The notes below the pieces were generated by a model. That model made no database searches and was not told the origin of the DNA. It saw nothing but the letters and a program-made list of their open reading frames with translations. From Schmidtea nova (taxonomy: Eukaryota), in the NCBI GenBank assembly GCA_044892505.1, contig CM097882.1, positions 246,636,001-246,700,000 on the forward strand: a stretch of 64,000 bases of DNA, given 5' to 3'. Numbering within the stretch: the stretch's first letter is position 1; each line of letters opens with the position of its first letter. The translations under genes and the position numbers were made by a program. Shown one piece after another: positions 10,504 through 64,000 of the stretch.

Positions 10504-10905
10504 TTATTGCTTTAAATAATCTACAACAGCAGACAAGCACCCTTTATAGGCACACATACAATGGTCTTTATAGGGACATGAAATGTTTTCAGGAACATAT
10601 TCAACTTCTTTATAAGTATACTTGATTAATCTTAATTTCGGGAAATACTTCTTCAAAACATACATCTTTTCATTATCGGTAACATAGAAAATAGCTCCTT
10701 TATCTGTGATATCATCCATTATACATTTTGGGCAAAAATAATCTTGTCCTTCAAACGATTCTATACGATCAGGCCATAAAGATAAATCACTGTATATATA
10801 ATACTGGGGTGTGAAAATATTATTAACATTCATAATACATAATTCCTTAATTGTTGTTCCACCCATTTCATTATAACCATAAAAATCGATAAAATAACAA
10901 GACAT
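10504..10905 (-). CDS. Polinton accessory protein, possibly a degenerate DnaQ-like exonuclease fold with a C-terminal Cys/His cluster (133 aa)
   Basis: IDFYGY...IKELCI, YVTDNEK and CPYKDHCMCA resemble a recurrent Polinton-associated family; recalled, not searched. Confidence 0.6.
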   Translation of the reverse strand: MSCYFIDFYGYNEMGGTTIKELCIMNVNNIFTPQYYIYSDLSLWPDRIESFEGQDYFCPKCIMDDITDKGAIFYVTDNEKMYVLKKYFPKLRLIKYTYKEVEYVPENISCPYKDHCMCAYKGCLSAVVDYLKQ

Positions 10906-10937
10906 TTTTTCAAATAAAATATATTAAAATAAATTGT

Positions 10938-11316
10938 TTATAACATTGATTTTAACCATGCAAGGCAATGTTCACCACAAGTGATTGTTAAAGGATGCTG
11001 ATATCGAATTCTATTATACACAATAGGTTTACCAATAGTTTGTAGTTTTCGAACAAGTAAATTCGGATAATAATATCCAAAGGGATCAAATACATGTATT
11101 CGATCTGGTTTCACGTAAACTGCAATCCAATGTTCACCACCCAACGTAGATGTCTGAGTATTTACAATGATGGCTTGATTCATTTTCAAATAAGGTATTT
11201 TATCCAGAGGAAATACTCCAATAAATTGATTTCCCAATAGTTTTTTACCTTGTTTTAATACCTGAATAGAACTAATTAAAAATAAATAATTAATCAATTA
11301 AAAAATCTTACTCCAT
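10938..11316 (-). CDS. Adenain-like cysteine (maturation) protease, two exons (11316-11312, 11271-10938; 112 aa)
   Basis: FIGVFPLD, GEHW (His), FDPFG (Asp), YQHPLTITCGEHC (Gln/Cys); removing a 40-nt intron gives an ATG start, MDSIQVLK. Confidence 0.92.
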
Positions 11317-11392
11317 AATAATAATAAAAATAATAACTTTGATCATTTATACTGTTTAAGCTGTGCTCAAACGAATACTGTTTGATTTCTGC

Positions 11393-12613
11393 TCAAACCA
11401 ATATTGTTCTATTGGCAGTAATTTGTACTTCATTTTCAAAAACTCCATAAATAACTACATGAACCGGTTCATCAATAGGTTTTGCAAACTTTATATCCAG
11501 TCGTAAATTTCCGTTTTGAGGGATTTGGCTTTGATTCAAATCAAAATCGGGAGCCAGAACAAATGTAAAGAATGGATAACTAGATTTAAATTCATCTAGA
11601 CCAATACCACAATTCAAGTTTTTATCCAAATAACCTAGATTTCGGACAAGACTTTGCATATATGATGCACTAAAATTATCATTTTCAAAATCCTGGGTAT
11701 ATGTTTCACGATAATCGGTATTTTTCGACAATGTTAATGAAGTCACATTAAAATGTTTGAATGTAGATGTTGACTCGGTATAAGACCCATTATATTGATT
11801 TTCGGATTGAAAAGCCACAAGAATGAAATTAGGCATTCGTCTATCCCCAAATATCTGCTCCTTGTAAAATGACGATGCCCCTTTACCGATAGCAAACGAT
11901 ACGATTTCTTTGGATTTTAATGGATAAATTGCATGTTTTTTATTTAAACCAATTTGATGACCGGCCAATACTGAAGAATCACATCGAACTCTTCTTACCA
12001 TTAATTTTGCATCAACTATTTGGATAACTGGTTTTCCAGCTACCGATTTCAATGATAATGCAGAATCAGATCGCTTCAATCTAATATGTACATTAACTCC
12101 GGGAAGTAAGTATTTAGGTTGATCCATAAAATCCAGTTGTAATGACGAACACATGTTGAAAAGTTTAGATCCTTTAATCCATTTTTTCCGATCGTCAGCT
12201 GAACCATATCCCATTGGAGTAAGACATGTTTCTTTAGCATCATTCGTATAATTTAAAATAGTTTCGATTATTGCCTTGTGTGCATATGTATTGTTTCCAC
12301 CCTCGATTTTTATATTATTAAATCCGAGAATTACATCTTTGAAAAGTGTATGAAACAAATAATTATTGGGAACTACATCACTCGCATCGGCTAGAGCTTT
12401 TTTATCTTTATCTACAACTTTGATTGTAACGGACAATAATGTATCGTTCAAATCCAAATATTCGGTTTGAGAACCATTAATGTAAAATTCAACATCATTT
12501 CTACTATCTGTAATTGAATTCATTGGAAACACATCTTCAAACGCCCCATATTCAATAACTGCTTGAGGTGATGGTCGATCAAAAAGACATAATTCAGATT
12601 TACCGCAAATCAT
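11393..12613 (-). CDS. Major capsid protein (double jelly-roll, Polinton PY/hexon-like; 406 aa)
   Basis: N-terminal KSELCLFDRPSPQ...VEFYI...YLDL pattern of Polinton MCPs; position in the morphogenetic module. Confidence 0.9.
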   Translation of the reverse strand: MICGKSELCLFDRPSPQAVIEYGAFEDVFPMNSITDSRNDVEFYINGSQTEYLDLNDTLLSVTIKVVDKDKKALADASDVVPNNYLFHTLFKDVILGFNNIKIEGGNNTYAHKAIIETILNYTNDAKETCLTPMGYGSADDRKKWIKGSKLFNMCSSLQLDFMDQPKYLLPGVNVHIRLKRSDSALSLKSVAGKPVIQIVDAKLMVRRVRCDSSVLAGHQIGLNKKHAIYPLKSKEIVSFAIGKGASSFYKEQIFGDRRMPNFILVAFQSENQYNGSYTESTSTFKHFNVTSLTLSKNTDYRETYTQDFENDNFSASYMQSLVRNLGYLDKNLNCGIGLDEFKSSYPFFTFVLAPDFDLNQSQIPQNGNLRLDIKFAKPIDEPVHVVIYGVFENEVQITANRTILV

Positions 12614-12993
12614 TCTTCAAATATAGTTCCATGACCTTTCATTCGTTTGTTTATACGCTTTCGTTTACGTCTCGGTCCTACCGGTACAGATTCCGGTTCC
12701 TTATTTTTTGTAAACATACTTGTAATTGTAGGAAGCATTTGTGTTACAGCAGGTATAGCTTTATTAACTGCGGCCAAAGCATTGGTTTTCAATGACGGTA
12801 ATATTTTATTATCTTTCATGATAACGTCCTTGGCAGTATTCATTCCGAAATTACCTAGTCGTCTAAGAATTGGAAGTGCAAATCTCCCAATAGTTTTCAA
12901 CCAACCTGATCCATACTGTTTACCGACAAAATACGGTAATTCGCCACCAGTTTGGCTATCACTGTACATTGAAACTATATCGGGATTACTCAT
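12610..12993 (-). CDS. Conserved Polinton virion-associated protein (127 aa) with QxGG/QxGxG sites and an amphipathic helix
   Basis: SQTGG, KQYGSGWLKTIGRFALPILRRLG, basic RRKRKR tail; its stop overlaps the MCP ATG (ATGA). Confidence 0.75.
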   Translation of the reverse strand: MSNPDIVSMYSDSQTGGELPYFVGKQYGSGWLKTIGRFALPILRRLGNFGMNTAKDVIMKDNKILPSLKTNALAAVNKAIPAVTQMLPTITSMFTKNKEPESVPVGPRRKRKRINKRMKGHGTIFEE

Positions 12994-14029
12994 CGTTTTT
13001 TCGAAAATGTAGAGTTAAGTGAGTTTTTGAATCTTTTGGAAATTTTATAAATCTTCCACTGTCATCCCGGATATTTATTTCTATATTGTTTATACAAGAT
13101 GTTGAAACAGGTAAATACATTGGATTTTCAACTTGTATTTGAACAATTTCATCTGGCTCGTATTTTTCAATCCATACCGATTTTAGTAAAGGAACCAAGG
13201 AATCACCAACAATAATGGGTTCGATAATGTTTGTATACACGAATAATTGCTGATGAAGTTTAGATATTTTCGGTTGACGAACACCAGAAATGATATTTTT
13301 ATCGGTAAATGTATCCTTATCTAATCCCAATGTATTGACCAAGTATTTATCAAATCTGACTTTATTGATTTTTTCTTTGAGTTTGAATTTGAACAATTTA
13401 TTTAATTCGACAACTGTAAAAATATCCGAACAATTATCGCTAATATATTTCTGTAATTCATCTAGATGCGTTATATACAACTCCTCCTTGAAGGTGAATA
13501 CATGTCCTTCTTGACGATCATACGATATAGTAAAAGTAATTATTTCTTCATCGTTACTGGCCAAGTTTTGCATAACTTTGAATTCACATTCTTCTTCATT
13601 ACATTTTATTGTCAGTTTATTACTTCCCATTCGTTTTGCTACATCAAGATCGTTAAATGTAATTGTATACGGAACAACATTACACGTGAGAATTATTTTT
13701 CCACTTCGTTGCCACATTTCGATATCCGGATCAATTGTGTGAGTTGGAACATTCAGATGACCACTATTATTATATATCGAGAAAAATGCATTTGCAACAG
13801 TTGTTTTCGTAATATAGTAATATATTTTACAATAACTATAAAATGGAAAAGGTTGGTAAACAAATGTAAAATCCATTAGAGCAACTTCCCAATTTCCGTT
13901 TAAATAAATTGGATTAGGTAAATTCACCATGAATTTACTTGCGGTATTATCCGGATGGATATTCGGACAACTATTGCTCGGTAAAATAGTGTAAAAATTC
14001 ACTTTACTAGATTTTTTGACGAGATCCAT
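12986..14029 (-). CDS. Minor capsid protein (penton-like, single jelly-roll; 347 aa)
   Basis: FYTILPSNS...NTASKF...LNGNWEVAL at the N-terminus; FVYTNIIEPIIVGDSLVPLL...NPMYLPV...IRDDSG...LHFRK at the C-terminus. Confidence 0.9.
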   Translation of the reverse strand: MDLVKKSSKVNFYTILPSNSCPNIHPDNTASKFMVNLPNPIYLNGNWEVALMDFTFVYQPFPFYSYCKIYYYITKTTVANAFFSIYNNSGHLNVPTHTIDPDIEMWQRSGKIILTCNVVPYTITFNDLDVAKRMGSNKLTIKCNEEECEFKVMQNLASNDEEIITFTISYDRQEGHVFTFKEELYITHLDELQKYISDNCSDIFTVVELNKLFKFKLKEKINKVRFDKYLVNTLGLDKDTFTDKNIISGVRQPKISKLHQQLFVYTNIIEPIIVGDSLVPLLKSVWIEKYEPDEIVQIQVENPMYLPVSTSCINNIEINIRDDSGRFIKFPKDSKTHLTLHFRKNDE

Positions 14030-15043
14030 GACGGTTCTTTATATCCATGCCATTTAACATAGTATTGTTTATCCTTACCCACCATTTTAGTCTTCAAAAT
14101 CTTTTGAATTCTAAATATCGTAGGTTTAGGAATAACTTGTAATTCTTGTTCGTAGAATTTGCCGCTGATTATATTGTTATCAGAGTCACGAATAGTATAC
14201 ATGACAGGATTCTGCACTGTGTTGACTTTCGATATTTGATATACCTCATCACTCCAATTATTATCAAAATTTTTAACGAATGGCGATGTACTAATCTTGC
14301 TAATTCGAACATGATCATCAACTTTATATTTTGGTTTCTTTACTTTCACTTCACTCACAATATTTTCAGTATCAACTACTTCTGCCGGTTTCCTACCATT
14401 TATACCCCGATGAGCACTATGATTATAACTATGAATCAATTGAGGTAAGACATTAATCCAGGTTTTATTGCCTTTAAAAACAAAGTATTTTTTCAATCGA
14501 TCACGCAAAGTTCGATTAAATCTCTCGACATGAGCGGCTTTGAATTGTGAGAATACTGAATAATGATTTATTCCCTTGATAACTTCCTTGACTTTACTGT
14601 TGTAAAATTCCTTTCCTAAAAAATATTAAATTTATAAATTTAAATTAAAATTTACCCAAATCGGTTTGTAAATTAGTTGGCCGATCCTTTTTCATCATTG
14701 TCTTGATAGCGATTGCCATATCATTAGCAGATTTTGATTTTACTCCAATTGCTCGAGCAAATCTACTGTAAACATCAATACACGTTAAAATATACTTGTA
14801 CCCCTTGTTAATTTTGGAATACGGAATCATTTCCATCAAGTCCATTTGCCACAAATCATTGATTCTATATGTTTTATATGCTCGAGTTGGAAATCGTTTC
14901 AACATCGGCTTGTTTAGACTGTATGCAAGTTGCCCCGATAACCAACTTTGTGTCTGTTGTTTCGACTTCTGTGCTTTTTTCCTTAGCTTTTCGACTCCAC
15001 CGAAACCGGCGTCGTCTTTTGGGTTCGTCCAGATCTTCTCCAT
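13999..15043 (-). CDS. int: Retroviral-type DDE integrase with C-terminal chromodomain, two exons (15043-14656, 14615-13999; 334 aa)
   Basis: WQMDL (D), LQTDLG^KEF (D), HVERFNRTL (E), YYVKWHGY chromodomain; the two ORF-track fragments join in frame after removing a 40-nt GT-AG intron. Confidence 0.95.
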
Positions 15044-15098
15044 TACAACAAGAAGATTTAAAATTTAAATTTAAATTAGGTAGTGATTGACCCATTGT

Positions 15099-15608
15099 TT
15101 ATGACTTTCTTTTTCCCAATAAACCAGCACCTCCCAATAAAGATAATGCTAATGGTAACAATGCTGCGATAAAACCACCTTGTTGTTTATATATTACTTT
15201 GCGCATAAGTTTTTTATTTTTTGAGTTTACTAGCGACAACAATGGTTTTTTATGCCTGTTCAAAACACGGCGATTAGATGGAGTTAGATTCATTTTACCT
15301 CGCACGACTTTAATTAAAATAGTGAGTAAATCATCGATGACGTAACTAGGAAACGATTGAAGAATACCCATTCTTCTAACGGAAGGGGCTTTAAGTAATG
15401 CATTAAAAAACGGTAAACTCCGATGATGTGTTTGTTTAGCATTAGATTTCAAATTATTTTTGGGAATATTATCCATAAGTATTTTCTTGGATTTCTTTCT
15501 TGATTTCTTTATAGATTTCTTTGTAAATAGTTTCTTTGTTTTCTTTCCCGCTTTCTTTGTTCTAGCCTTTATCAATGGCTCAAACTTTACTCGAGATTTC
15601 ATTAACAT
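15099..15608 (-). CDS. Basic Polinton core-like protein (169 aa) ending QQGG-FIAALLP
   Basis: Lys-rich N-terminus; QxGGF plus hydrophobic C-terminus typical of Polinton core precursors. Confidence 0.75.
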   Translation of the reverse strand: MLMKSRVKFEPLIKARTKKAGKKTKKLFTKKSIKKSRKKSKKILMDNIPKNNLKSNAKQTHHRSLPFFNALLKAPSVRRMGILQSFPSYVIDDLLTILIKVVRGKMNLTPSNRRVLNRHKKPLLSLVNSKNKKLMRKVIYKQQGGFIAALLPLALSLLGGAGLLGKRKS

Positions 15609-15628
15609 GATTACGATTGAAAAATAAA

Positions 15629-16252
15629 TTAACTTTGTTTATAAACCATGGCTCCTTCAGGGTTAAAAATATCAGTTCTAACGCGTAAATCATCACTGCA
15701 TTGTTGAGTAAAATCCAGGAAAATATATCCATGAGGAGATTTTGTAGCATCTTGAAAGGCTTCAATTAAAAAGTTACGATTTGAAGGATAAGCTTGTCTT
15801 GCCAGAAAATCAATAACTGTTGCATCTCTAGGATTTTTAAAAACAACAAGATATTGAACATTTAAATTACGAGTTCGATGACTACCGCCCTGATGAAATA
15901 AATTCTGAGTTATAAAAATAACAGTAACACCTTTATGTCTACTGATTTTCGTAAATAAATTATTGAAATACTTTTCTTTATTTGCTTCTTGATACAAGTC
16001 GTCAATGATAATCACATCACCATGTTTTAATCTAGATGACCAGTTTTTATCGAAACCTTTAATGATTGTCATTTTTATTTTACAAAACTGATCTTGTGTC
16101 ATTCCACTTTCGTCGTCAGCACCCCTATGCCAATAAATATTATTAAATTTTGACTTGAATAATTTCGATTGCAATAATTTACAAACAAATAAAGTTTTTC
16201 CACTCCCGCTCGGACCAACAATTTGAAATACTGCATCATTTCTTAATTCCAT
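15629..16252 (-). CDS. A32/FtsK-like DNA packaging ATPase (207 aa)
   Basis: Walker A GPSGSGKT, Walker B IIIDD, SRH...IFITQNLF, FKNPRD. Confidence 0.95.
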   Translation of the reverse strand: MELRNDAVFQIVGPSGSGKTLFVCKLLQSKLFKSKFNNIYWHRGADDESGMTQDQFCKIKMTIIKGFDKNWSSRLKHGDVIIIDDLYQEANKEKYFNNLFTKISRHKGVTVIFITQNLFHQGGSHRTRNLNVQYLVVFKNPRDATVIDFLARQAYPSNRNFLIEAFQDATKSPHGYIFLDFTQQCSDDLRVRTDIFNPEGAMVYKQS

Positions 16253-16345
16253 ATTTAAAAATTATATTTAATTAATATTATTGTTTATATTTGTTTTAAA
16301 TACTGGTTCTCAAAGTAATTATTTCATTTAAAAATATTTTCAGTA

Positions 16346-16813
16346 ATGATTAGAAACATTAATTACAAGGGTAAGACAGATGTATCACACATGAAATTTC
16401 CAAATGGAAAACCCCAGCAAATTGTAGATCGAAGTGGGAAATACCCAAAAATATACTTTAAATCAGGAAGATATAGAATAATGGGATGCAGGGAATTTAT
16501 TAGTGAGGAACAAGTTGAGTTTTACGATTTAAAGATACAATCGATAACTGTAACTGCAGATTTAGGATTTATTTGTAATTTGAATGAATTATCGAAATTA
16601 ATACCGTGTGTTTACGAGCCAGAATTGTTTCCAGCTTTGAGATATACCAAATATAATCCCATGTGTGTAAATATATTTGCAAGTGGGAAATTAGTCATAT
16701 TAGGATTAAAAAACAAAGATTATAGTACTATAGTTGATGATATTATTAACGATATAAAATCAGTTATAGAAGATAAAGCCTTTGTTGATTTCATACTAAC
16801 ATGTGACTCATGA
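16346..16813 (+). CDS. Divergent TATA-binding-protein (TBP)-like protein (155 aa)
   Basis: YEPELFPALRY...VNIFASGKLVILG matches TBP repeat 2; IRNINY...IYFKSGRYRIMG matches a shortened repeat 1. Confidence 0.85.
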   Translation: MIRNINYKGKTDVSHMKFPNGKPQQIVDRSGKYPKIYFKSGRYRIMGCREFISEEQVEFYDLKIQSITVTADLGFICNLNELSKLIPCVYEPELFPALRYTKYNPMCVNIFASGKLVILGLKNKDYSTIVDDIINDIKSVIEDKAFVDFILTCDS

Positions 16814-16819
16814 CTGCAA

Positions 16820-16980
16820 TATCGATGCATTAGAAATGCACGATTCTGATTGGCTCTGTGTGTATTTCGAGAATAAAGACATGTTGTGCATGCTTCACTC
16901 TGATTGGTTCATTATGTATGTTTCAAATCATGTGTGTTTCTTTGATATATATACTATGAACAAACTGACATAGTTTATAT
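16820..16980 (+). promoter_or_regulatory. Putative promoter (two TCTGATTGG boxes and a TATA-like element)
   Basis: TCTGATTGG at 16845 and 16899; TATATATA near 16945. Confidence 0.5.
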
Positions 16981-16988
16981 CTACAATT

Positions 16989-17644
16989 ATGTCGCAAAAT
17001 TTAAACAATTTAAAAAATGGTAATAATAAAATTAATATATTTTCAAATTTAATATATTTTTTTTTTTTTTAGAAAGACGCATGTCCGTCATCTACACCAA
17101 ACTGGCTGAGATGTTCCCCAATCTGATGCAGACGCTGACCTATACAGCACCGGAGATGTTCCCGTTCAAAATTCGTGTTTTGACGGGACTAGATGTCAAT
17201 GCCATTTTGAAGGATCACATGGAAAATCTCAACAACGATTTGCCTTTTATGGCAGATCATATTTTATGCGCCTATCAATGCGGGCACTGTATGGATAGGA
17301 TCCAAAAATTCCAAGTGTGGGTTCTCAGAAATACCCTGAACCAATTTGAAACAGAAGAATTGAAGGAAATCATCGAGGAGGAGGAGGAGGAGGAGGAGAA
17401 CCAAATCAAGGAAACATGGCCCAACTCAACTCCGGAGCCAACAGATGATGAAACAACAACAGATTTGGAAGCACCAACTCTAGATGGCCCGTTTCCAACT
17501 AAATCATCTCAATCACCAGATTGTCAGGAATCACCTCAATCACCTGATTGTATGCAATGCCATCGAAAGGCTGAAGATTGTGATGGTGATAATAATAGTG
17601 ATGATGGTTGCCAATCTCTTGGTGGCGAACCATCTGACATGTGA
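16989..17644 (+). CDS. Acidic Cys-containing accessory protein, probably two exons (16989-17019, 17073-17644)
   Basis: 187-aa ORF; an upstream ATG exon joins in frame across a 53-nt GT-AG intron (MSQNLNNLKN-E-RRMSVIY). Confidence 0.7.
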
Positions 17645-17645
17645 A

Positions 17646-17687
<42 letters not shown>
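17646..17687 (+). repeat. (TTG)n microsatellite
   Basis: Direct inspection. Confidence 0.9.
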
Positions 17688-18069
17688 AATTTGTTGTGTC
17701 ATTTTTGTTATATTATTTGAATAAAAGTTTTATTATTCATTTTAGTTTGTCTTTTTATTTACATTTTAGTTAAATAAAAGTTTTTTATTCATTTTATTTA
17801 AATAGTAATAGTTTTTTATTAAAACATTTTAAGTAGTAATAGTTTTTTATTAAAACATTTTAAGTAGTATTTTTTTTTTTTTTTTTTTTTTTTTAACTGT
17901 ATATAAAAGTTAAATAATTTTTTATTTTTTTTTTTTTATTAAATACTTTTCAGAAAGAAAGTAGTAGTATTATAAAATAAATAAGAACATTAGTAACCAG
18001 ACATTAGAAGCAGAACCTATTCTGTGATGGTTTTGATATGCAAAAGCTCATTATTGAACATATACAAAT

Positions 18070-18217
18070 TAATTAAACATGCACGCATACAACAAAGACA
18101 TTGCAATACATGTGCATAGTGTGTGCAAGATAAATGCATGAATATGATTGGACAAAGACATCCAGTCATTAGTATAAATACAAAGACATTTTATAAAATA
18201 TTGTCACAATTTATAAA
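18070..18217 (+). promoter_or_regulatory. Putative promoter (ACAAAGACA x3, TGATTGG, TATAAA)
   Basis: TGATTGG 18145-18151 and TATAAA 18173-18178 upstream of ATG 18218. Confidence 0.5.
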
Positions 18218-18634
18218 ATGAATTCAAGAAAAGAAAATTTAGATATAAGCGAAGAAAAAATATATCAGACTGAGGTAAAACCAGTCCAGATGTACTACGA
18301 CAGCAGACTTTATTTTTTGGTTAATGAAATACCGTATCGATTATCATTTCCGGTAAAGTTGACAAAATCTTTATATGACAGTCTTGCTATAATTATTTCC
18401 AAAGCAGATATTATCGCATTAAATCGATTGTTTTCAAAGATCAATGTTAATTTGACATGTAAAGAAACCATGTACATCAATAACAGAAAAACTCGGTTCC
18501 ATGATGCTTTTCAGACTATTGATTTCATGGATCAAGAACACTGGTTCGTTACAGTTATTATTCAAGGGTACAAGATTGATAAAAAAGATGTTGCTACTCC
18601 GATTTGGAGAGTTGACAATGCAAGATACGCATAA
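18218..18634 (+). CDS. Accessory protein (138 aa), possibly OB-fold/SSB-like; contains LTCKE
   Basis: Clean ORF with a promoter-like upstream region; fold call is inference. Confidence 0.7.
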   Translation: MNSRKENLDISEEKIYQTEVKPVQMYYDSRLYFLVNEIPYRLSFPVKLTKSLYDSLAIIISKADIIALNRLFSKINVNLTCKETMYINNRKTRFHDAFQTIDFMDQEHWFVTVIIQGYKIDKKDVATPIWRVDNARYA

Positions 18635-18701
18635 TTGTTTTTTAATAAATATTTTTTAGTATGAACAATTTTAGTTTTGATATTAGTTTTTTGTTTTTAA
18701 A

Positions 18702-19283
18702 ATGAAATTAAATATAGTTATTTTGTTATTATGTGTTCACAATACTGAAGGAGAACAAGCTTTGGAAGATTGTCAATCATCTCATCCGTTTCGAAAACAA
18801 GATAGTACTTGTGCGAGTTATAATGATATATGTCTTTACTCAAACATTGAATGCAGTCAAATAAAATTACAATGTAATCAATGTCCTTCCAAAAATAATG
18901 TGATTAATAATGACATTGAAAAAATGATTGCCAAAATAATGATGAAAATAGTTGAACGATTAAAATGTATCAATCAAACTTTTGTTAAAAAAGAATATGA
19001 AGTCAGATACCAAAATCAATCAGTTGAAAATGAAAAAACAGCCATTGTATTACATTATATAAGTTTATTTATATTAATAATTATAATGATGTTATCGGCA
19101 TCCATACGGCTGGAGAAGATTTCAAATATTCCAAAGAATAATATTCCGACAAATACTAGTATTCCGATGAATAATATTACAATGAATAATATTCCTATGA
19201 ATAATATTCCGAGTAATAATCCAGATGTAAATAATTTTGAAACTAAATTTTGTACACGTACACAACGATATATTTATAAATAA
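18702..19283 (+). CDS. Predicted type I membrane protein (193 aa): signal peptide, 6-Cys ectodomain, TM helix, NNIP-repeat tail
   Basis: MKLNIVILLLCVHNTEG; six clustered Cys; hydrophobic IVLHYISLFILIIIMMLSASI. Confidence 0.75.
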   Translation: MKLNIVILLLCVHNTEGEQALEDCQSSHPFRKQDSTCASYNDICLYSNIECSQIKLQCNQCPSKNNVINNDIEKMIAKIMMKIVERLKCINQTFVKKEYEVRYQNQSVENEKTAIVLHYISLFILIIIMMLSASIRLEKISNIPKNNIPTNTSIPMNNITMNNIPMNNIPSNNPDVNNFETKFCTRTQRYIYK

Positions 19284-20299
19284 ATTTTATTTTCAATGTC
19301 TTTGTTCATGTTGCACGTGTATTGCATTGTCTTTGTTTAAGTTGCATGCGTGTTGCAAAGTCTTGCACGTGTATTGCATTGTCTTTGTTTAAGTTGCACG
19401 CGTGTTGCAAACCTTTCGATGACTAATATTTCTGTTAAAATTATTAATGTTAAAAAAAAATTTGTGTAAAAAAAAAATTTACAATTATAAATTTGGCGGG
19501 AAAAAAAAAATTAAAAAAAAAAATTTTTAAAAATTTAAAAAATTTTTGGCGCGAAAAAATAATTTTTGAAAAAAAAAAAAAAAAAAAAAAATTTAGCCCC
19601 CCCCCGGGGGGGGGGGTCTCGAAAAAATTCTTTGTTTAAAAATTTTTACGCCCACGCATTAAAAAGTTCTTTGTTTAAATTTTTTACGCCCACGCATAAA
19701 AAAGTTCTTTGTTTAAAAAAAAAATTTTAAAAAAAAAAAATTTTGTATGAAAAAAAAAATTGTTAAAAAAAAATTTGTGAAAAAAAAAAAAATTTGTGTT
19801 AAAAAATTTTGTGTTAAAAAATTTTGTGTTGAAAAAATTTGTGTTAAAAATTTTATGTTAAAAAATTTTGTGTTAAAAAATTTTGTGTTGAAAAAAAATT
19901 TGTGTTGAAAAAATTTGTGTTGAAAAAATTTGTGTTAAAAAATTTTATGTTAAAAAATTTTATGTTAAAAAATTTTGTGTTAAAAAATTTTGTGTTAAAA
20001 AATTTTGTGTTAAAAAATTTTGTGTTAAAAAATTTTGTGTTAAAAAATTTTGTGTTAAAAAATTTTGTGTTAAAAAAAAAATTTGTGTTAAAAAATTTTG
20101 AAATTTAAATTTGGCGCGAAAAAAAATTTTTCAAAAAAAAAATTCAAAAATTTTTGGCGCGAAAAAAAAAAAAAAAAAAAAATTGACCCCCCCCCCCCCG
20201 GGGGGGGGGGTTCGGAAAAAAAAAAGTTCTTTGTTTAAAATTTTCCGCCCACGCATTATGACTCATTTCTTTGTGTTTGACTCCACACATCTACCTACT
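18921..20299 (-). repeat. Right terminal inverted repeat (~1.38 kb)
   Basis: Reverse complement of the left end. Confidence 0.9.
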
Positions 20300-57023: not shown

Positions 57024-60000
57024 ATGAAAACTAATGAAAAATCAAAAACGAAGGGAGAGGAAGCCGCCGACACTTTCGCTTGTGATTTTTGTGAAGCGAT
57101 TTTTTCCGACTAAAATTGGGAAGGGGTTACACACCAGTAACAAACATCGTGATAAACACGATGCCGCTAAGATAAATAAAATAAATAAAAATAAAATCAA
57201 CTCGCGTAACGCAATTTGGACTGTTGAGGAGGAAGTCCGCATGGCTAAGGTGCATGTGGCATGTGAGAGACTCGAGTGTAATAGGGGAGTTTTGATGTAC
57301 AAATTAGGGACCGTTAGTGCTGATCGCTCCAAGGAGTCCATTAGAGCACACTTAAAAACGGTTAGGTATTGTAAAATATTACAAGTGTTAAGGGAAAACC
57401 CTGACGACAATATTTGCATACCGCAAAACAAGCAGCAGGTTCAGTTCGCCCACGATGAATCGGACAAAGAAGCAATCATTAAATACCTCTCCGCACTACC
57501 AAAGAAGGAAGGTATTGATGATTGGCAAGAGCGCGACCTTGACTATATTATCCACGGTCCTTCTGCGTCTGATGAAAAAAGAAGATGTCTAGAGATATAT
57601 TGTAATGATATAACCTTTAGCCATCGTCCCAAAGGAAAGCCACCCCGTAGTAAGGTTAGCCCACTAGTCAAGCCGTCCAAGGATGCGAAGAAGCATCTGA
57701 AGAAAGAGTTCCGAAGAAAAACATATGGAGCTCTCCAAGAACTATTCAAAAAAGACAGAAGTGAGGCAGCCAAAGTGATACTAGGGGGGAAGGTCGATTC
57801 TTTGGTGAGTGGTATCGAACCAGTTACGGGTCTGGGTGAGTATTGGCGTGGGGTTTTCGAAAGGGAATCAGATGCTGATACAAGAGCTGTAGAGACTGTA
57901 ACTGAGGAGAGTAATATGGTCTTATCTATAACCGATTCAGAGGTTCTGAATTCAGTTAAGGAAATAGACCTGAAGACTGCCTGTGGTCCTGATGGCATTA
58001 CTACTGCAACACTAAGGACGATCCCGACGTCTGTACTGGTAAAGTTATTTAATTTGGTTATTTATCTAGGTTATCTTCCTCCGGTTCTAAAAAGCTCCAG
58101 AACAACGCTAATACCAAAGACCGATAATCCAAAAAGTCCAAGTGATTATCGGCCTATTTCAATAAATTCAGTTATAACTAGAGTTTTAAATAAAATTCTC
58201 GCTCAGCGAACCCTAAACTATGATAAAAGTTTTTCAGCCCAAAAAGGGTTTAAGCCCATTGATGGATGTCTAGAGAATACTATTTTACTAGACTCTATCC
58301 TCTCGGATGCACGTAAAAATAAAAAGAATATTGCCCTCGCCTTCATTGACATGAAGAAAGCTTTTGATTCTGTCAATCATGACAGTATTTTGAGAGCGGC
58401 AAAAATAGCCCATTACCCCAAACTACTTTTAAACTATATAGAAAATAGCTACACTGACGCCGAGACCATTGTAGATGGAACGCCAGCTATGTTCAAAAGA
58501 GGTGTAAAGCAAGGGGACCCGCTTTCACCCGCACTTTTTAATAATATTATTGAGTTGGCGATTGAGAAAGCCTACAAAACCCAACTCGGATACAAGATGA
58601 ATGGAAATACCTATCCCATTATGGCCTACGCTGATGATATTATCCTTCTAGCTGAGACCAAAGAAGGACTCCAAGACATTCTTTCTTCTGTTCTTCGAGA
58701 ACTTGGTGAAAATGGTCTTTCAGTGAATGCTGCAAAGTGTGCGTCCATTGTAGCCAAAAGAGACGGGAAGAACGACAGTTGGATAATAACTCCTGAGCGA
58801 GTGGCCGATGGTGAAGAGGAATTTCCCATTTTGTTATCAAATGATTTTTATAAATATTTAGGCATTTATTTTGGTCCGCTGGGTAAAATGAAAAATAACT
58901 TAACTAAAATATATACAGAACGCATTAACAATATTACTATCTCCCCTATTAAACCACAACAAAACTGGAAGTCTTAACTAACTTCCTTATACCGGGCATT
59001 TTGCACGAAGCAATTTTAGGTGAAACTGATGACTTGGAGCTTTGTGAACTGGACAAGATAACCCGGATGCTTGTTCGTAAATGGCTACATCTACCCAAAG
59101 ATACGTGCTTTTCGTACATTCACTCCAAAGTTAAAGATGGAGGAATGGGGGTACCTACTCTCTTGGCTGAGGTGAAGTTTGCGAAGATAACTAGATTGAA
59201 GAGGCTTGCCGATAGCAGTGATGGAAGGATTCGCGGATTAGTGGAGCAGGATGTCGTCAGAAACTTGTTAGCCAAATGGAGTAAGCCTATAAACTGGTGA
59301 CTCCCTGGCGTACGAAAAACATACCTATTACGAGTCGATGCGAGACTTGCTGTATACAAAGCTAGATGGGAAGGGTCTGTATGGAAGCGACGAGGTGCCT
59401 TTTGTTCATAACTGGCTTAAGGCCCAGACTAAGTTGATGACAGGTAGATCCTTCGTTAACAGTGTCAAAGTTCGTGGAAACCTTTTTAGTACCCCGACGT
59501 GACTCAGTCGTATGAATGGCGGCTCCGCCACTTCATCATCTATATGTAAGGCGGGCTGTGGGTTACCCTGCAGTCTTAGCCACATATCACAAAAGTGCAC
59601 TGCTACGCATGGGATGCGAGTGGAACGACACAATAAAGTGATGCTTTTTACAGCTGACATCGCGAGGAAGAAGGGGTGGAAGACCCTTGTGGAACCGGTT
59701 ATACCGTATAAAGAGACTATACGGAAACCGGATTTAGTAATTATCAAGGACCGCCGTGCTATGGTCGTGGATGTACAAATTGTTAGTGACAAGTCAGATC
59801 TGAGAGAACGAAATACTACAAAGTCCAAGGTATATGATGAGATTGAGATACGTTACTGGGTCCTTGAGCAGGGGGCAGATACTGTAGAGTTCGGTGCGTT
59901 AACGCTGAACTGGCGGGGTATCTGGGTCGAGGATTCATGGGACACCGTACAGAAATTCGGTGTCACACAGTCAGATGCCATGCTCATATCTCTGAAAGTA

Positions 60001-62326: not shown

Positions 62327-64000
62327 TACCATGTTACAATCTTGCTTTAATATGTTGCAATGATTTCAGATTATTTTTTGAAATAATATTTTGAGACAAA
62401 ATGTAATGAATGTTCACGTTTTTGAATTTATCAAAATCTATATTTGAAAAACATTTAACCAATAATTTATAGCTTTAGGCAACAAATTTTAGTTTAATAA
62501 ATAGCAAGACGAGATTTGAAAAAAAATATTTTATTATTTATATATGTATATAATAAAAGATGTCACATATATCATAAGTAATATTTCTAGAAACTATTTA
62601 TAAGCAAGCTACTAATTATCAAAACGAAATGGTTAGAAGAATGCGCTGCACCATTTTTGTCACATAGCAACGGTTGCTAACTCAAAAATCATCAATAAAT
62701 ACACACAAAATGGCTCATTGCCATGGAATTTATTGCGAAAACAAGTACAAGCGTCGAAATATAATCCCTGAGGTGGCTGTTGCTTTCATTACCAAGTAAA
62801 CACATAGTAATAAATAAATGCGTCGATTTATTTTCACGACTATCGATAACCAAAAACGATATGAATACAAAGACTGACAAGAATTATTTTATAGTTAAAA
62901 ATTTTCAACAAATAAAATATTTTCAGCAATGACTTATTTTGTTATTTAATTATAATTTTAGATATCAACAAACACTAAATACAAACACTAAAAAACTCTA
63001 AAAAAATCTCCTTATTTTTGTGATTTTCAATAAATTCAAATAATTAATACAAAGAGTATTTGATACATGATTATAATGAAAGGATATTTAGCTATAAAAT
63101 TTTCAAAAATGATCAGTTTTTTATTTGTAATCAAATTATAATCCAAATGAAATTTAAGGAATATTATTTTTTTTCATTAAACATCGCACTAAATCATAAA
63201 CTTTGCAAATGATTGGATTGTCATCATTATTTCTTCGAATATAATGAAGAATTTTATTAAAGTTTGCTTTGAGAATATATTTATGAGATTTATCGCATGA
63301 TTCAATGAGGTCAATTAATATTCTAATGCATTCAAATAGTACAATTGAAGTATTTTCTGGATTATGTAGTTCACGATAAAGTAATTTAACAATTGTTTCT
63401 ATGCTCGAAACTAAATGTATTTTGTCCCTTAATCTTGGAATAAATCTGGCTATTAGTTTCAAATCTCTCAATTTATTTATAGAGGAACTATCTTTAAGAT
63501 TGTCAATAGTTCTTCGTAAAGTTTTCGAAGAAGTAGTCATTAGATATTGAGGAATATCGTCTTTGAAGACATTCAATGCTGGATTTTCGTGTTTCAATAA
63601 CAAAGTCAATTGTTGGTTTTTAATATTAGGATTTGGCTGCGGATAAACTTTAACCGTTTTCACATTTCCACAGGTAGATACGACTCTAACAGTTTTATAT
63701 TCAGTAGACATTTTAAAGTATAAATAATTTTAAGTAAACTAATTTTTATTTGGTAATCTAAATAGAGATTATGTTTTTATTGGTTTAAATTCTATAACAT
63801 TTTATTGGTTATAATGCAAATGCATATTGAACATTACGAGAGAAAATAGTGATCGTTACCTTACATATTTAGTAGTTTAAAAAATTATAGATCATTGTGT
63901 CTTTAATCATTAGAAATTTATCAAATCATTCCTCTCATATTATCTAAATAGTAATTCTCACATTTTTAATATTACATGATTTTGAACATATTGTGACCAT
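62327..64000. repeat. Array resumes (more diverged units)
   Basis: Starts at TACCATGTTACAATC; carries extra substitutions and a small insertion relative to the central units. Confidence 0.92.
63154..63711 (-). CDS. Array ORF, 185-aa form
   Basis: Tandem copy with several private substitutions but an intact frame. Confidence 0.75.
   Translation of the reverse strand: MSTEYKTVRVVSTCGNVKTVKVYPQPNPNIKNQQLTLLLKHENPALNVFKDDIPQYLMTTSSKTLRRTIDNLKDSSSINKLRDLKLIARFIPRLRDKIHLVSSIETIVKLLYRELHNPENTSIVLFECIRILIDLIESCDKSHKYILKANFNKILHYIRRNNDDNPIICKVYDLVRCLMKKNNIP

Follow-up and report, generated by a model that had tools for sequence, protein, structure and literature searches.

Short candidate spliceosomal introns in the integrase and protease genes of a Polinton from Schmidtea nova

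RESULTS

A complete Polinton with two short segments inside core genes

We analyzed a 64,000-nucleotide stretch of the Schmidtea nova genome (contig CM097882.1, positions 246,636,001 to 246,700,000 of the forward strand), referred to here as the window. We found that it contains a complete Polinton/Maverick at 1429..20299. The element is 18,871 bp long, has the ends AGT...ACT, and carries long terminal inverted repeats, with arms at 2854-3413 and 18921-19480 that are 99% complementary. It lies within one unit of a 1,705-bp tandem array. Identical 6 bases flank it on both sides as a 6-bp target-site duplication, and the empty site is present in 20 other units. The polymerase, DDE integrase, double jelly-roll capsid, ATPase, protease, and termini by which Polintons/Mavericks are recognized are all present. 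Our interpretation, which we hold with good confidence, is that short GT-AG introns interrupt the integrase and protease genes, and likely the polymerase gene, and that their removal by the major spliceosome of the host is likely routine (Table 1).

Two segments, one in the integrase gene and one in the protease gene, are each 40 nt long, start with GT, and end with AG, as an earlier reading of this DNA (the original prediction) had described them in this copy. Their GC contents are 5% and 10%, compared with 32-39% in the flanking exons, and both contain stops in all three frames. A scan of 10400-16300 for low-GC GT..YAG windows found only these two (shuffle mean, 0.013; 0 of 300 shuffles reached 2), although the scan was post hoc and shuffling is a weak control.

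The integrase segment splits a Gly codon right after the second catalytic Asp motif (phase 1). When the two halves were translated separately, they showed an exact one-codon register in 111/111 homologs that align on both sides; 120 homologs were listed, and the other 9 matched the second half only. This agrees with the original prediction that the catalytic core is divided between the second Asp and the Glu. The protease segment begins five bases after the ATG start (phase 2: ATG plus two bases). In the downstream frame alone, the first Met is residue 30, past the conserved N-terminal motif, and the protease indeed has no usable ATG unless the segment is removed. Read without splicing, the integrase frame stops after 132 codons and the protease frame stops after 2 codons. 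From unspliced RNA, the protease product would be two residues long, and the integrase would be a stub that lacks the catalytic Glu; thus, splicing is required, and integration and capsid maturation would depend on it, as had been proposed.

The segments occur throughout the family

We searched the host genome (1.25 Gb, with three large contigs and many dynein heavy-chain loci) with fixed exon flanks, demanding an exact match, so diverged intron-less copies could escape. The integrase site was found at 2,078 places with a gap of 31-60 nt and at none with 0-30 nt. The protease site was found at 2,463 places with 25-55 nt and at one with 24 nt, which is still GT..AG; none was shorter. The possibility that these are copy-specific insertions, with continuous genes in other copies, did not fit: the segments are family-wide, and no intron-less copy was matched. 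These data support the view that the segments are spliceosomal-type introns common to the family. This one Polinton family has >2,000 copies in the genome and, if many are full length, makes up a few percent of it.

Among the first 100 copies listed, the integrase intron is 39-56 nt long (40 nt in 49 copies) and the protease intron is 37-43 nt long (mode, 39; 40 nt in 8 copies). Because of these ranges, the shared length of 40 nt is a matter of chance, and the significance that had been attached to exactly 40 nt falls away. By eye, GT is kept in 100 of these integrase rows and 99 of the protease rows, and AG is kept in 99 and 98, respectively. Sixty integrase copies, taken in genome order, have 43 distinct intron sequences. 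The first three and last three intron bases are invariant in 60/60, and the interior has 7% substitutions and 1- to 3-nt indels. Exon pN/pS relative to the window copy is 0.09, and both integrase exons are free of stops and frameshifts in 35 copies (23 are broken and 2 could not be scored). In the 30 best-matching copies per region, a selected set, both introns are unchanged.

We considered whether the segments could go unspliced, as inactivating insertions spread by a non-autonomous subfamily or as breaks bypassed by ribosomal frameshifting. Possible hexon-adenain frameshift fusions are described for some adintoviruses in the accessible text of Buck et al. (10.1101/2024.03.25.586562), and our knowledge of splicing here comes from sequence. 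However, no intron-less helper copy was matched, the exons on both sides are under purifying selection with 35/60 copies intact, and all three frames are closed by stops, both inside the segments and in the interval from the capsid gene to protease exon 2. Frameshifting cannot bridge the introns, since their lengths fall in all three frame classes. We regard this explanation as very improbable. Routine splicing, in contrast, is consistent with the U2-type features of the segments: GT-AG ends, a host-like donor, a T-rich acceptor, fixed ends around a variable interior, and exons in register. The proposal that core genes are cut by spliceosomal introns is thus upheld by the fixed ends, the drifting interiors, and the 111/111 register.

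The protease intron is shared with divergent elements

From 80 metagenome loci, we took the six that encode close proteases, 52-58% identical to that of the window. The same arrangement (ATG plus two bases, GTAAGT, and AG) recurs in all six, which represent four distinct elements. Their introns are 37, 39, 40, and 47 nt long and fall in all frame classes, and the interiors are no more alike than shuffles in 9/10 pairs. An in-frame Met stands at the intron site in 13/13 more distant loci. Among database proteases, 21/27 that are at least 50% identical have no Met at the site and show AT-rich read-through or late starts, compared with 6/41 at 40-50% identity; these counts come from a crude rule applied to rows with the N-terminal motif only. 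A few close proteases, such as P0123, do carry the Met and are intron-less or cDNA-derived. Because site and phase match in four elements whose interiors are unrelated, we regard the protease intron as old and as a mark of a clade. The comparison of intron position among homologous Polintons, suggested in the original prediction, therefore gave the same site and phase in four other elements.

The integrase intron appears to be younger and patchy. The site is continuous in 76/76 metagenome loci that cover it (4/80 do not), and the integrase is also continuous in the four elements that have the protease intron. Among database relatives, P0148, P0149/P0175, and P0174 (71-74% identical) end 1-17 residues past the second Asp motif. 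The P0174 tail is rich in Ile and Phe, as expected of intron read-through. Second halves that match are annotated as proteins of their own, on contigs of the same length. We infer that these relatives have the integrase intron in common. For the integrase, positional conservation is suggested by P0148, P0149, and P0174 but is not seen in the metagenome loci. In a quick tree of 129 columns, in which most close forks are unresolved, a single supported group of 33 rows contains both these relatives and the window; most of its rows are continuous, and some are on contigs of 11-16 kb. One gain with losses, repeated gain, or recombination could each account for this pattern. Scans of IMG/VR with the integrase, capsid, and protease found no relative. 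Three split pairs from close integrase clusters (P0186/P0193, P0234/P0238, and P0259/P0264) were set aside; each breaks away from the intron site.

Comparison with host introns

We called host introns in 60 ten-kb stretches of dynein genes, which are one gene family, with a caller that is blind to introns that lack stops and have a length divisible by three. The short host introns peak at 43-58 nt, a range that holds 47/50 well-supported calls below 60 nt; the other three are 29-41 nt. Host donors are mostly GTAAA or GTAAT, and the donor and acceptor types of the element match those of the host dynein introns. The 44- to 54-nt introns of the element lie within the host peak, and the two core introns are at its lower limit or slightly shorter. 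Thus, the description of the introns as host-sized is roughly correct, although the core introns sit at the margin of the host range.

Small size could also point to regulation. In this scheme, near-minimal introns would be retained or mis-spliced in most cells, and their removal, limited to the germline or stem cells, would control integration and capsid maturation. A precedent is the third intron of the Drosophila P element, as given in the accessible text of PMC4647562, and the core introns do lie at the lower edge of host intron size. P0147, the protein of a relative, is a second weak hint: its first 130 residues equal those of P0174, after which it passes from the splice site directly to the final 14 integrase residues. 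It possibly represents the donor joined to a far acceptor. However, P0147 may be a deletion, and near the end of the integrase the window offers no far acceptor that is both strong and in frame. The donor and acceptor are strong and of common host types, intron lengths and interiors drift freely without a conserved internal motif, and the retention product varies with intron length and differs among copies. We therefore consider regulated splicing improbable. The tissue-specific switch that had been proposed gains no positive support from strong splice sites and freely drifting interiors. An extended version seems similarly doubtful to us: a whole clade of animal Polintons would depend on splicing for the integrase, protease, and polymerase and would use size-limit introns and alternative acceptors to turn on integration and virion maturation in some cells, with truncated, possibly inhibitory forms of the integrase or polymerase elsewhere.

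Four sequencing runs of unspecified kind cover 10945-16255 evenly in a DNA-like manner and carry no evidence on splicing. Of 100 joints in these DNA-like runs, the 15 displayed include no 40-nt skip, and a gap row at a 5% share is absent. We discounted a 108-nt GT-AG skip in the capsid gene, which occurs in a single contig from a single run and whose acceptor is poor.

The polymerase gene is probably split as well

One of the two accessory genes of the original prediction lies on the minus strand. We found that it has four open exons, starting from an ATG at 10110 and each ending in phase 1, with introns of 51, 52, and 50 nt between them and a fourth donor at 9512. Of 28 AGs past this donor, only that at 8721 opens a long frame, and this is the 1,347-codon polymerase frame. 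In 30 fetched copies, 29 of which could be mapped, the long intron is 567-1,293 nt, falls in all frame classes, and is GT..AG in 29/29. Exons 3 and 4 vary in length by multiples of three only (61/61 indels in exon 4), some of this by codon-repeat slippage, and the full five-exon phase holds in 4/4 copies where it could be checked. We think it probable that the polymerase gene begins with the four small exons, which a 792-nt intron would link to its main frame, and that they are not an accessory gene. We hold this link less firmly than we otherwise would because the polymerase main exon has its own Met.

The alternative, which concerns the polymerase only, is that the small exons form a separate accessory gene ending after an 88-nt intron and that the polymerase starts at its own Met. 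A YAG does lie 82-97 nt past the donor in 29/29 mapped copies, the main exon has a Met 19 codons in, and no relatives with the polymerase 5' exon region were at hand for comparison. However, the near YAG changes frame among copies, whereas the far AG is retained in 29/29 (copies chosen for likeness to the main-exon start), and the sole long frame opened by any of the 28 AGs is that of the polymerase. In the window, use of the 88-nt option (acceptor 9425) leads to a stop after 9 codons. We consider a separate gene unlikely. The introns of 50-88 nt that had been assigned to two accessory genes are therefore retained at 51, 52, and 50 nt on the minus strand and at 53 nt on the plus strand but not at 88 nt. 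The plus-strand intron is GT..AG and 44-54 nt long in 27/30 copies; the other 3 were unmapped. Breaks in the polymerase of one relative (L099) were also inspected and are not GT-AG introns.

Other genes of the element and its surroundings

The capsid, putative penton, and ATPase genes are each one unbroken frame. The capsid protein model has a pLDDT of 84 and matches iridovirus, chlorovirus, and mavirus capsid proteins in Foldseek at an E value of 1e-16. The putative minor capsid gene is present as two or three tandem copies in relatives L061-L063, L092, L106, L115, L128, and L133. For the integrase, rve scores above its cutoff on exon 1, exon 2 has 635 homologs, and the Chromo profile on the C-terminal region (E value, 4.7e-5) reaches 23.7 bits, below its cutoff of 25.1. 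The polymerase B assignment also agrees with matches to relatives' frames, and we take the motifs visible in the frame to be those of a polymerase. A Pfam scan of the polymerase gave Endonuclease_7 as the sole match and missed the family B profile; a PDB sequence search found nothing for it, and PDB and PHROGs searches added nothing.

A 73-codon open reading frame (ORF) with a Met-Gly start (15095-14874, minus strand) overlaps the integrase start in another frame. A Met-Gly ORF is at the matching place in 9/9 relatives checked (54-96 codons in 8 and >150 in one); we presume that the Met-Gly start could allow myristoylation. The element also has a TBP-like ORF (16319-16813, plus strand; Pfam TBP E value, 5e-14); relatives L065 and L075 have it too. 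A small ORF (18687-19283, plus strand; 3051-3413, minus strand) has its 3' part inside the inverted repeat, and its end is thus present at both sides of the element. The left inverted repeat (1430-2640) has a tandem duplication of ~600 bp relative to the right repeat. The host tandem array (1-1428, 20300-53300, and 62400-64000) consists of ~20 near-identical 1,705-bp units, each with an open frame of 169-194 codons without a Pfam match. A separate retroelement is inserted in the array, with a reverse transcriptase ORF at 57028-58977 (plus strand; RVT_1 E value, 8.5e-36).

Table 1. Genes, exons, and introns assigned in the Polinton (window coordinates)
Feature	Positions	Strand	Basis
Integrase exon 1, start codon to second catalytic Asp motif	14656..15043	-	Pfam rve E 2.6e-8
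Integrase intron, 40 nt, GT-AG, phase 1	14616..14655	-	Register and copies
Integrase exon 2, catalytic Glu motif and C-terminal chromodomain-like region	13999..14615	-	Weak Pfam rve_3
Protease exon 1, coding part (start codon and two bases)	11312..11316	-	Same layout in four other elements
Protease intron, 40 nt, GT-AG, phase 2	11272..11311	-	Copies and four divergent elements
Protease exon 2, cysteine protease of the adenovirus type (His, Asp, and Cys motifs)	10938..11271	-	Pfam Peptidase_C5 E 5.6e-6
Four small exons (10110-10059, 10007-9891, 9838-9740, 9689-9513)	9513..10110	-	Probably polymerase 5' part
Predicted phase-1 intron, 792 nt, exon 4 to polymerase frame	8721..9512	-	Inferred from sequence
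Protein-primed DNA polymerase B main exon, 1,347 codons	4675..8720	-	Atlas clusters with PF03175, score 0.96
Double jelly-roll major capsid protein, no intron	11393..12616	-	Structure model and Foldseek
Likely minor capsid (penton) gene, no intron	12986..14038	-	Named by position; conserved between integrase and capsid genes in relatives
Packaging ATPase, no intron	15629..16261	-	Pfam Pox_A32 E 4.6e-7
Accessory gene, 53-nt phase-1 intron (17020-17072)	16989..17644	+	Copies

DISCUSSION

The element has much in common with animal Polintons and adintoviruses (Eupolintoviridae): polymerase B, a retrovirus-type integrase with a possibly chromodomain-like end, an ATPase, an adenovirus-type protease, a double jelly-roll capsid, terminal inverted repeats, a 6-bp target duplication, and a size of 15-20 kb. 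It differs in that the core genes reported for vertebrate and nematode Polintons are intronless, whereas here the integrase, the protease, and probably the polymerase have introns, one of them conserved in a clade. The accessible portion of a vertebrate Maverick study (PMC8097293) describes intact elements without introns and counts only intronless ones as intact. The corresponding text on nematode Mavericks (10.1101/2022.07.12.499685) describes intronless core genes, with introns only in cargo genes. Both fit the earlier statement that Polinton core genes are usually annotated as single ORFs. According to its available text, a protist survey used bacterial-style gene calling and took endogenous viruses as intron-free (PMC10120064). 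Adintovirus criteria in the available part of 10.1101/2024.03.25.586562 include an OTU-like domain at the polymerase N terminus and a capsid reciprocally similar to reference viruses. Our search of the literature on Polinton/Maverick introns and splicing found no conserved spliceosomal introns in the integrase or protease; this search did not extend to Repbase or to supplements, among them the annotated adintovirus maps from Buck et al., which could include spliced genes.

Several known systems are partly similar. Dinoflagellate eupolintoviruses carry introners, per the excerpted text of PMC12166617, and are likewise Polinton-type proviruses with spliceosomal-type introns. Their introns are young copies of intron-generating transposons, whereas those in the window are mutually unrelated and AT-rich, and one is old and positionally conserved. 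Group I introns are described for cryptophyte elements. The P element is also a DNA transposon whose catalytic gene needs host splicing; in the accessible account, splicing of its third intron is repressed in somatic tissue, whereas routine splicing is the more likely case for the Polinton in the window. Adomaviruses have a related virion-gene module, and the available text of 10.1101/341131 reports spliced transcripts by RNA sequencing, with leaders joined to acceptors upstream of start codons; the introns in the window, in contrast, lie inside the coding sequence of an integrated element.

We propose that the Polinton is intact and recently multiplied and belongs to an integrated lineage that is presumably transcribed in the nucleus. 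Introns would likely have been gained stepwise, first after the protease start codon, where the intron is now clade-wide, and later inside the integrase core. The host major spliceosome would remove them, probably in all cells that transcribe the element, so that splicing would be constitutive rather than regulated. The introns may persist because their splice ends are needed for copying of the element while the interiors are free to drift, and they may be kept because imprecise loss is impossible.

Several observations weigh against this model. Splicing is deduced from genomic sequence and not from RNA junctions. The core introns (37-43 nt) are shorter than 47/50 of the short host introns called, and so could splice poorly. 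The integrase intron is patchy in close relatives, and the nearest tree neighbors of the window are continuous; a single gain is thus insufficient without losses or recombination. The copies are mutually related, so their counts are of non-independent events, and the copy patterns needed exact flanks. For the polymerase link, agreement in phase would arise by chance one time in three, and the main exon carries a Met of its own. We conclude that the introns are a real feature of the family; the strongest points are the clade-wide protease intron, selection on splice ends over thousands of copies, and the probable split of the polymerase.

The finding bears on how such elements are annotated. 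As had been predicted, ORF-based annotation breaks these genes: relatives in protein collections are halves that end at the splice site or have intron-like N termini. In one public gene model, P0002, the second integrase exon from an element with 72% identity is joined to an unrelated N terminus (PF08606), an example of mis-annotation of a split gene. Surveys that assume intron-free genes would count as defective a family that has >2,000 copies, in many of which the exons are unbroken, and the proteases of its clade would receive wrong starts under such gene calling. The protease intron, at one site across proteases that are 52-58% identical, implies long nuclear transcription and provides a dated marker of a Polinton clade. 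With one minimal intron present in thousands of copies, the family is also a naturally occurring resource for testing the lower size limit of splicing and how mobile elements gain and lose introns.

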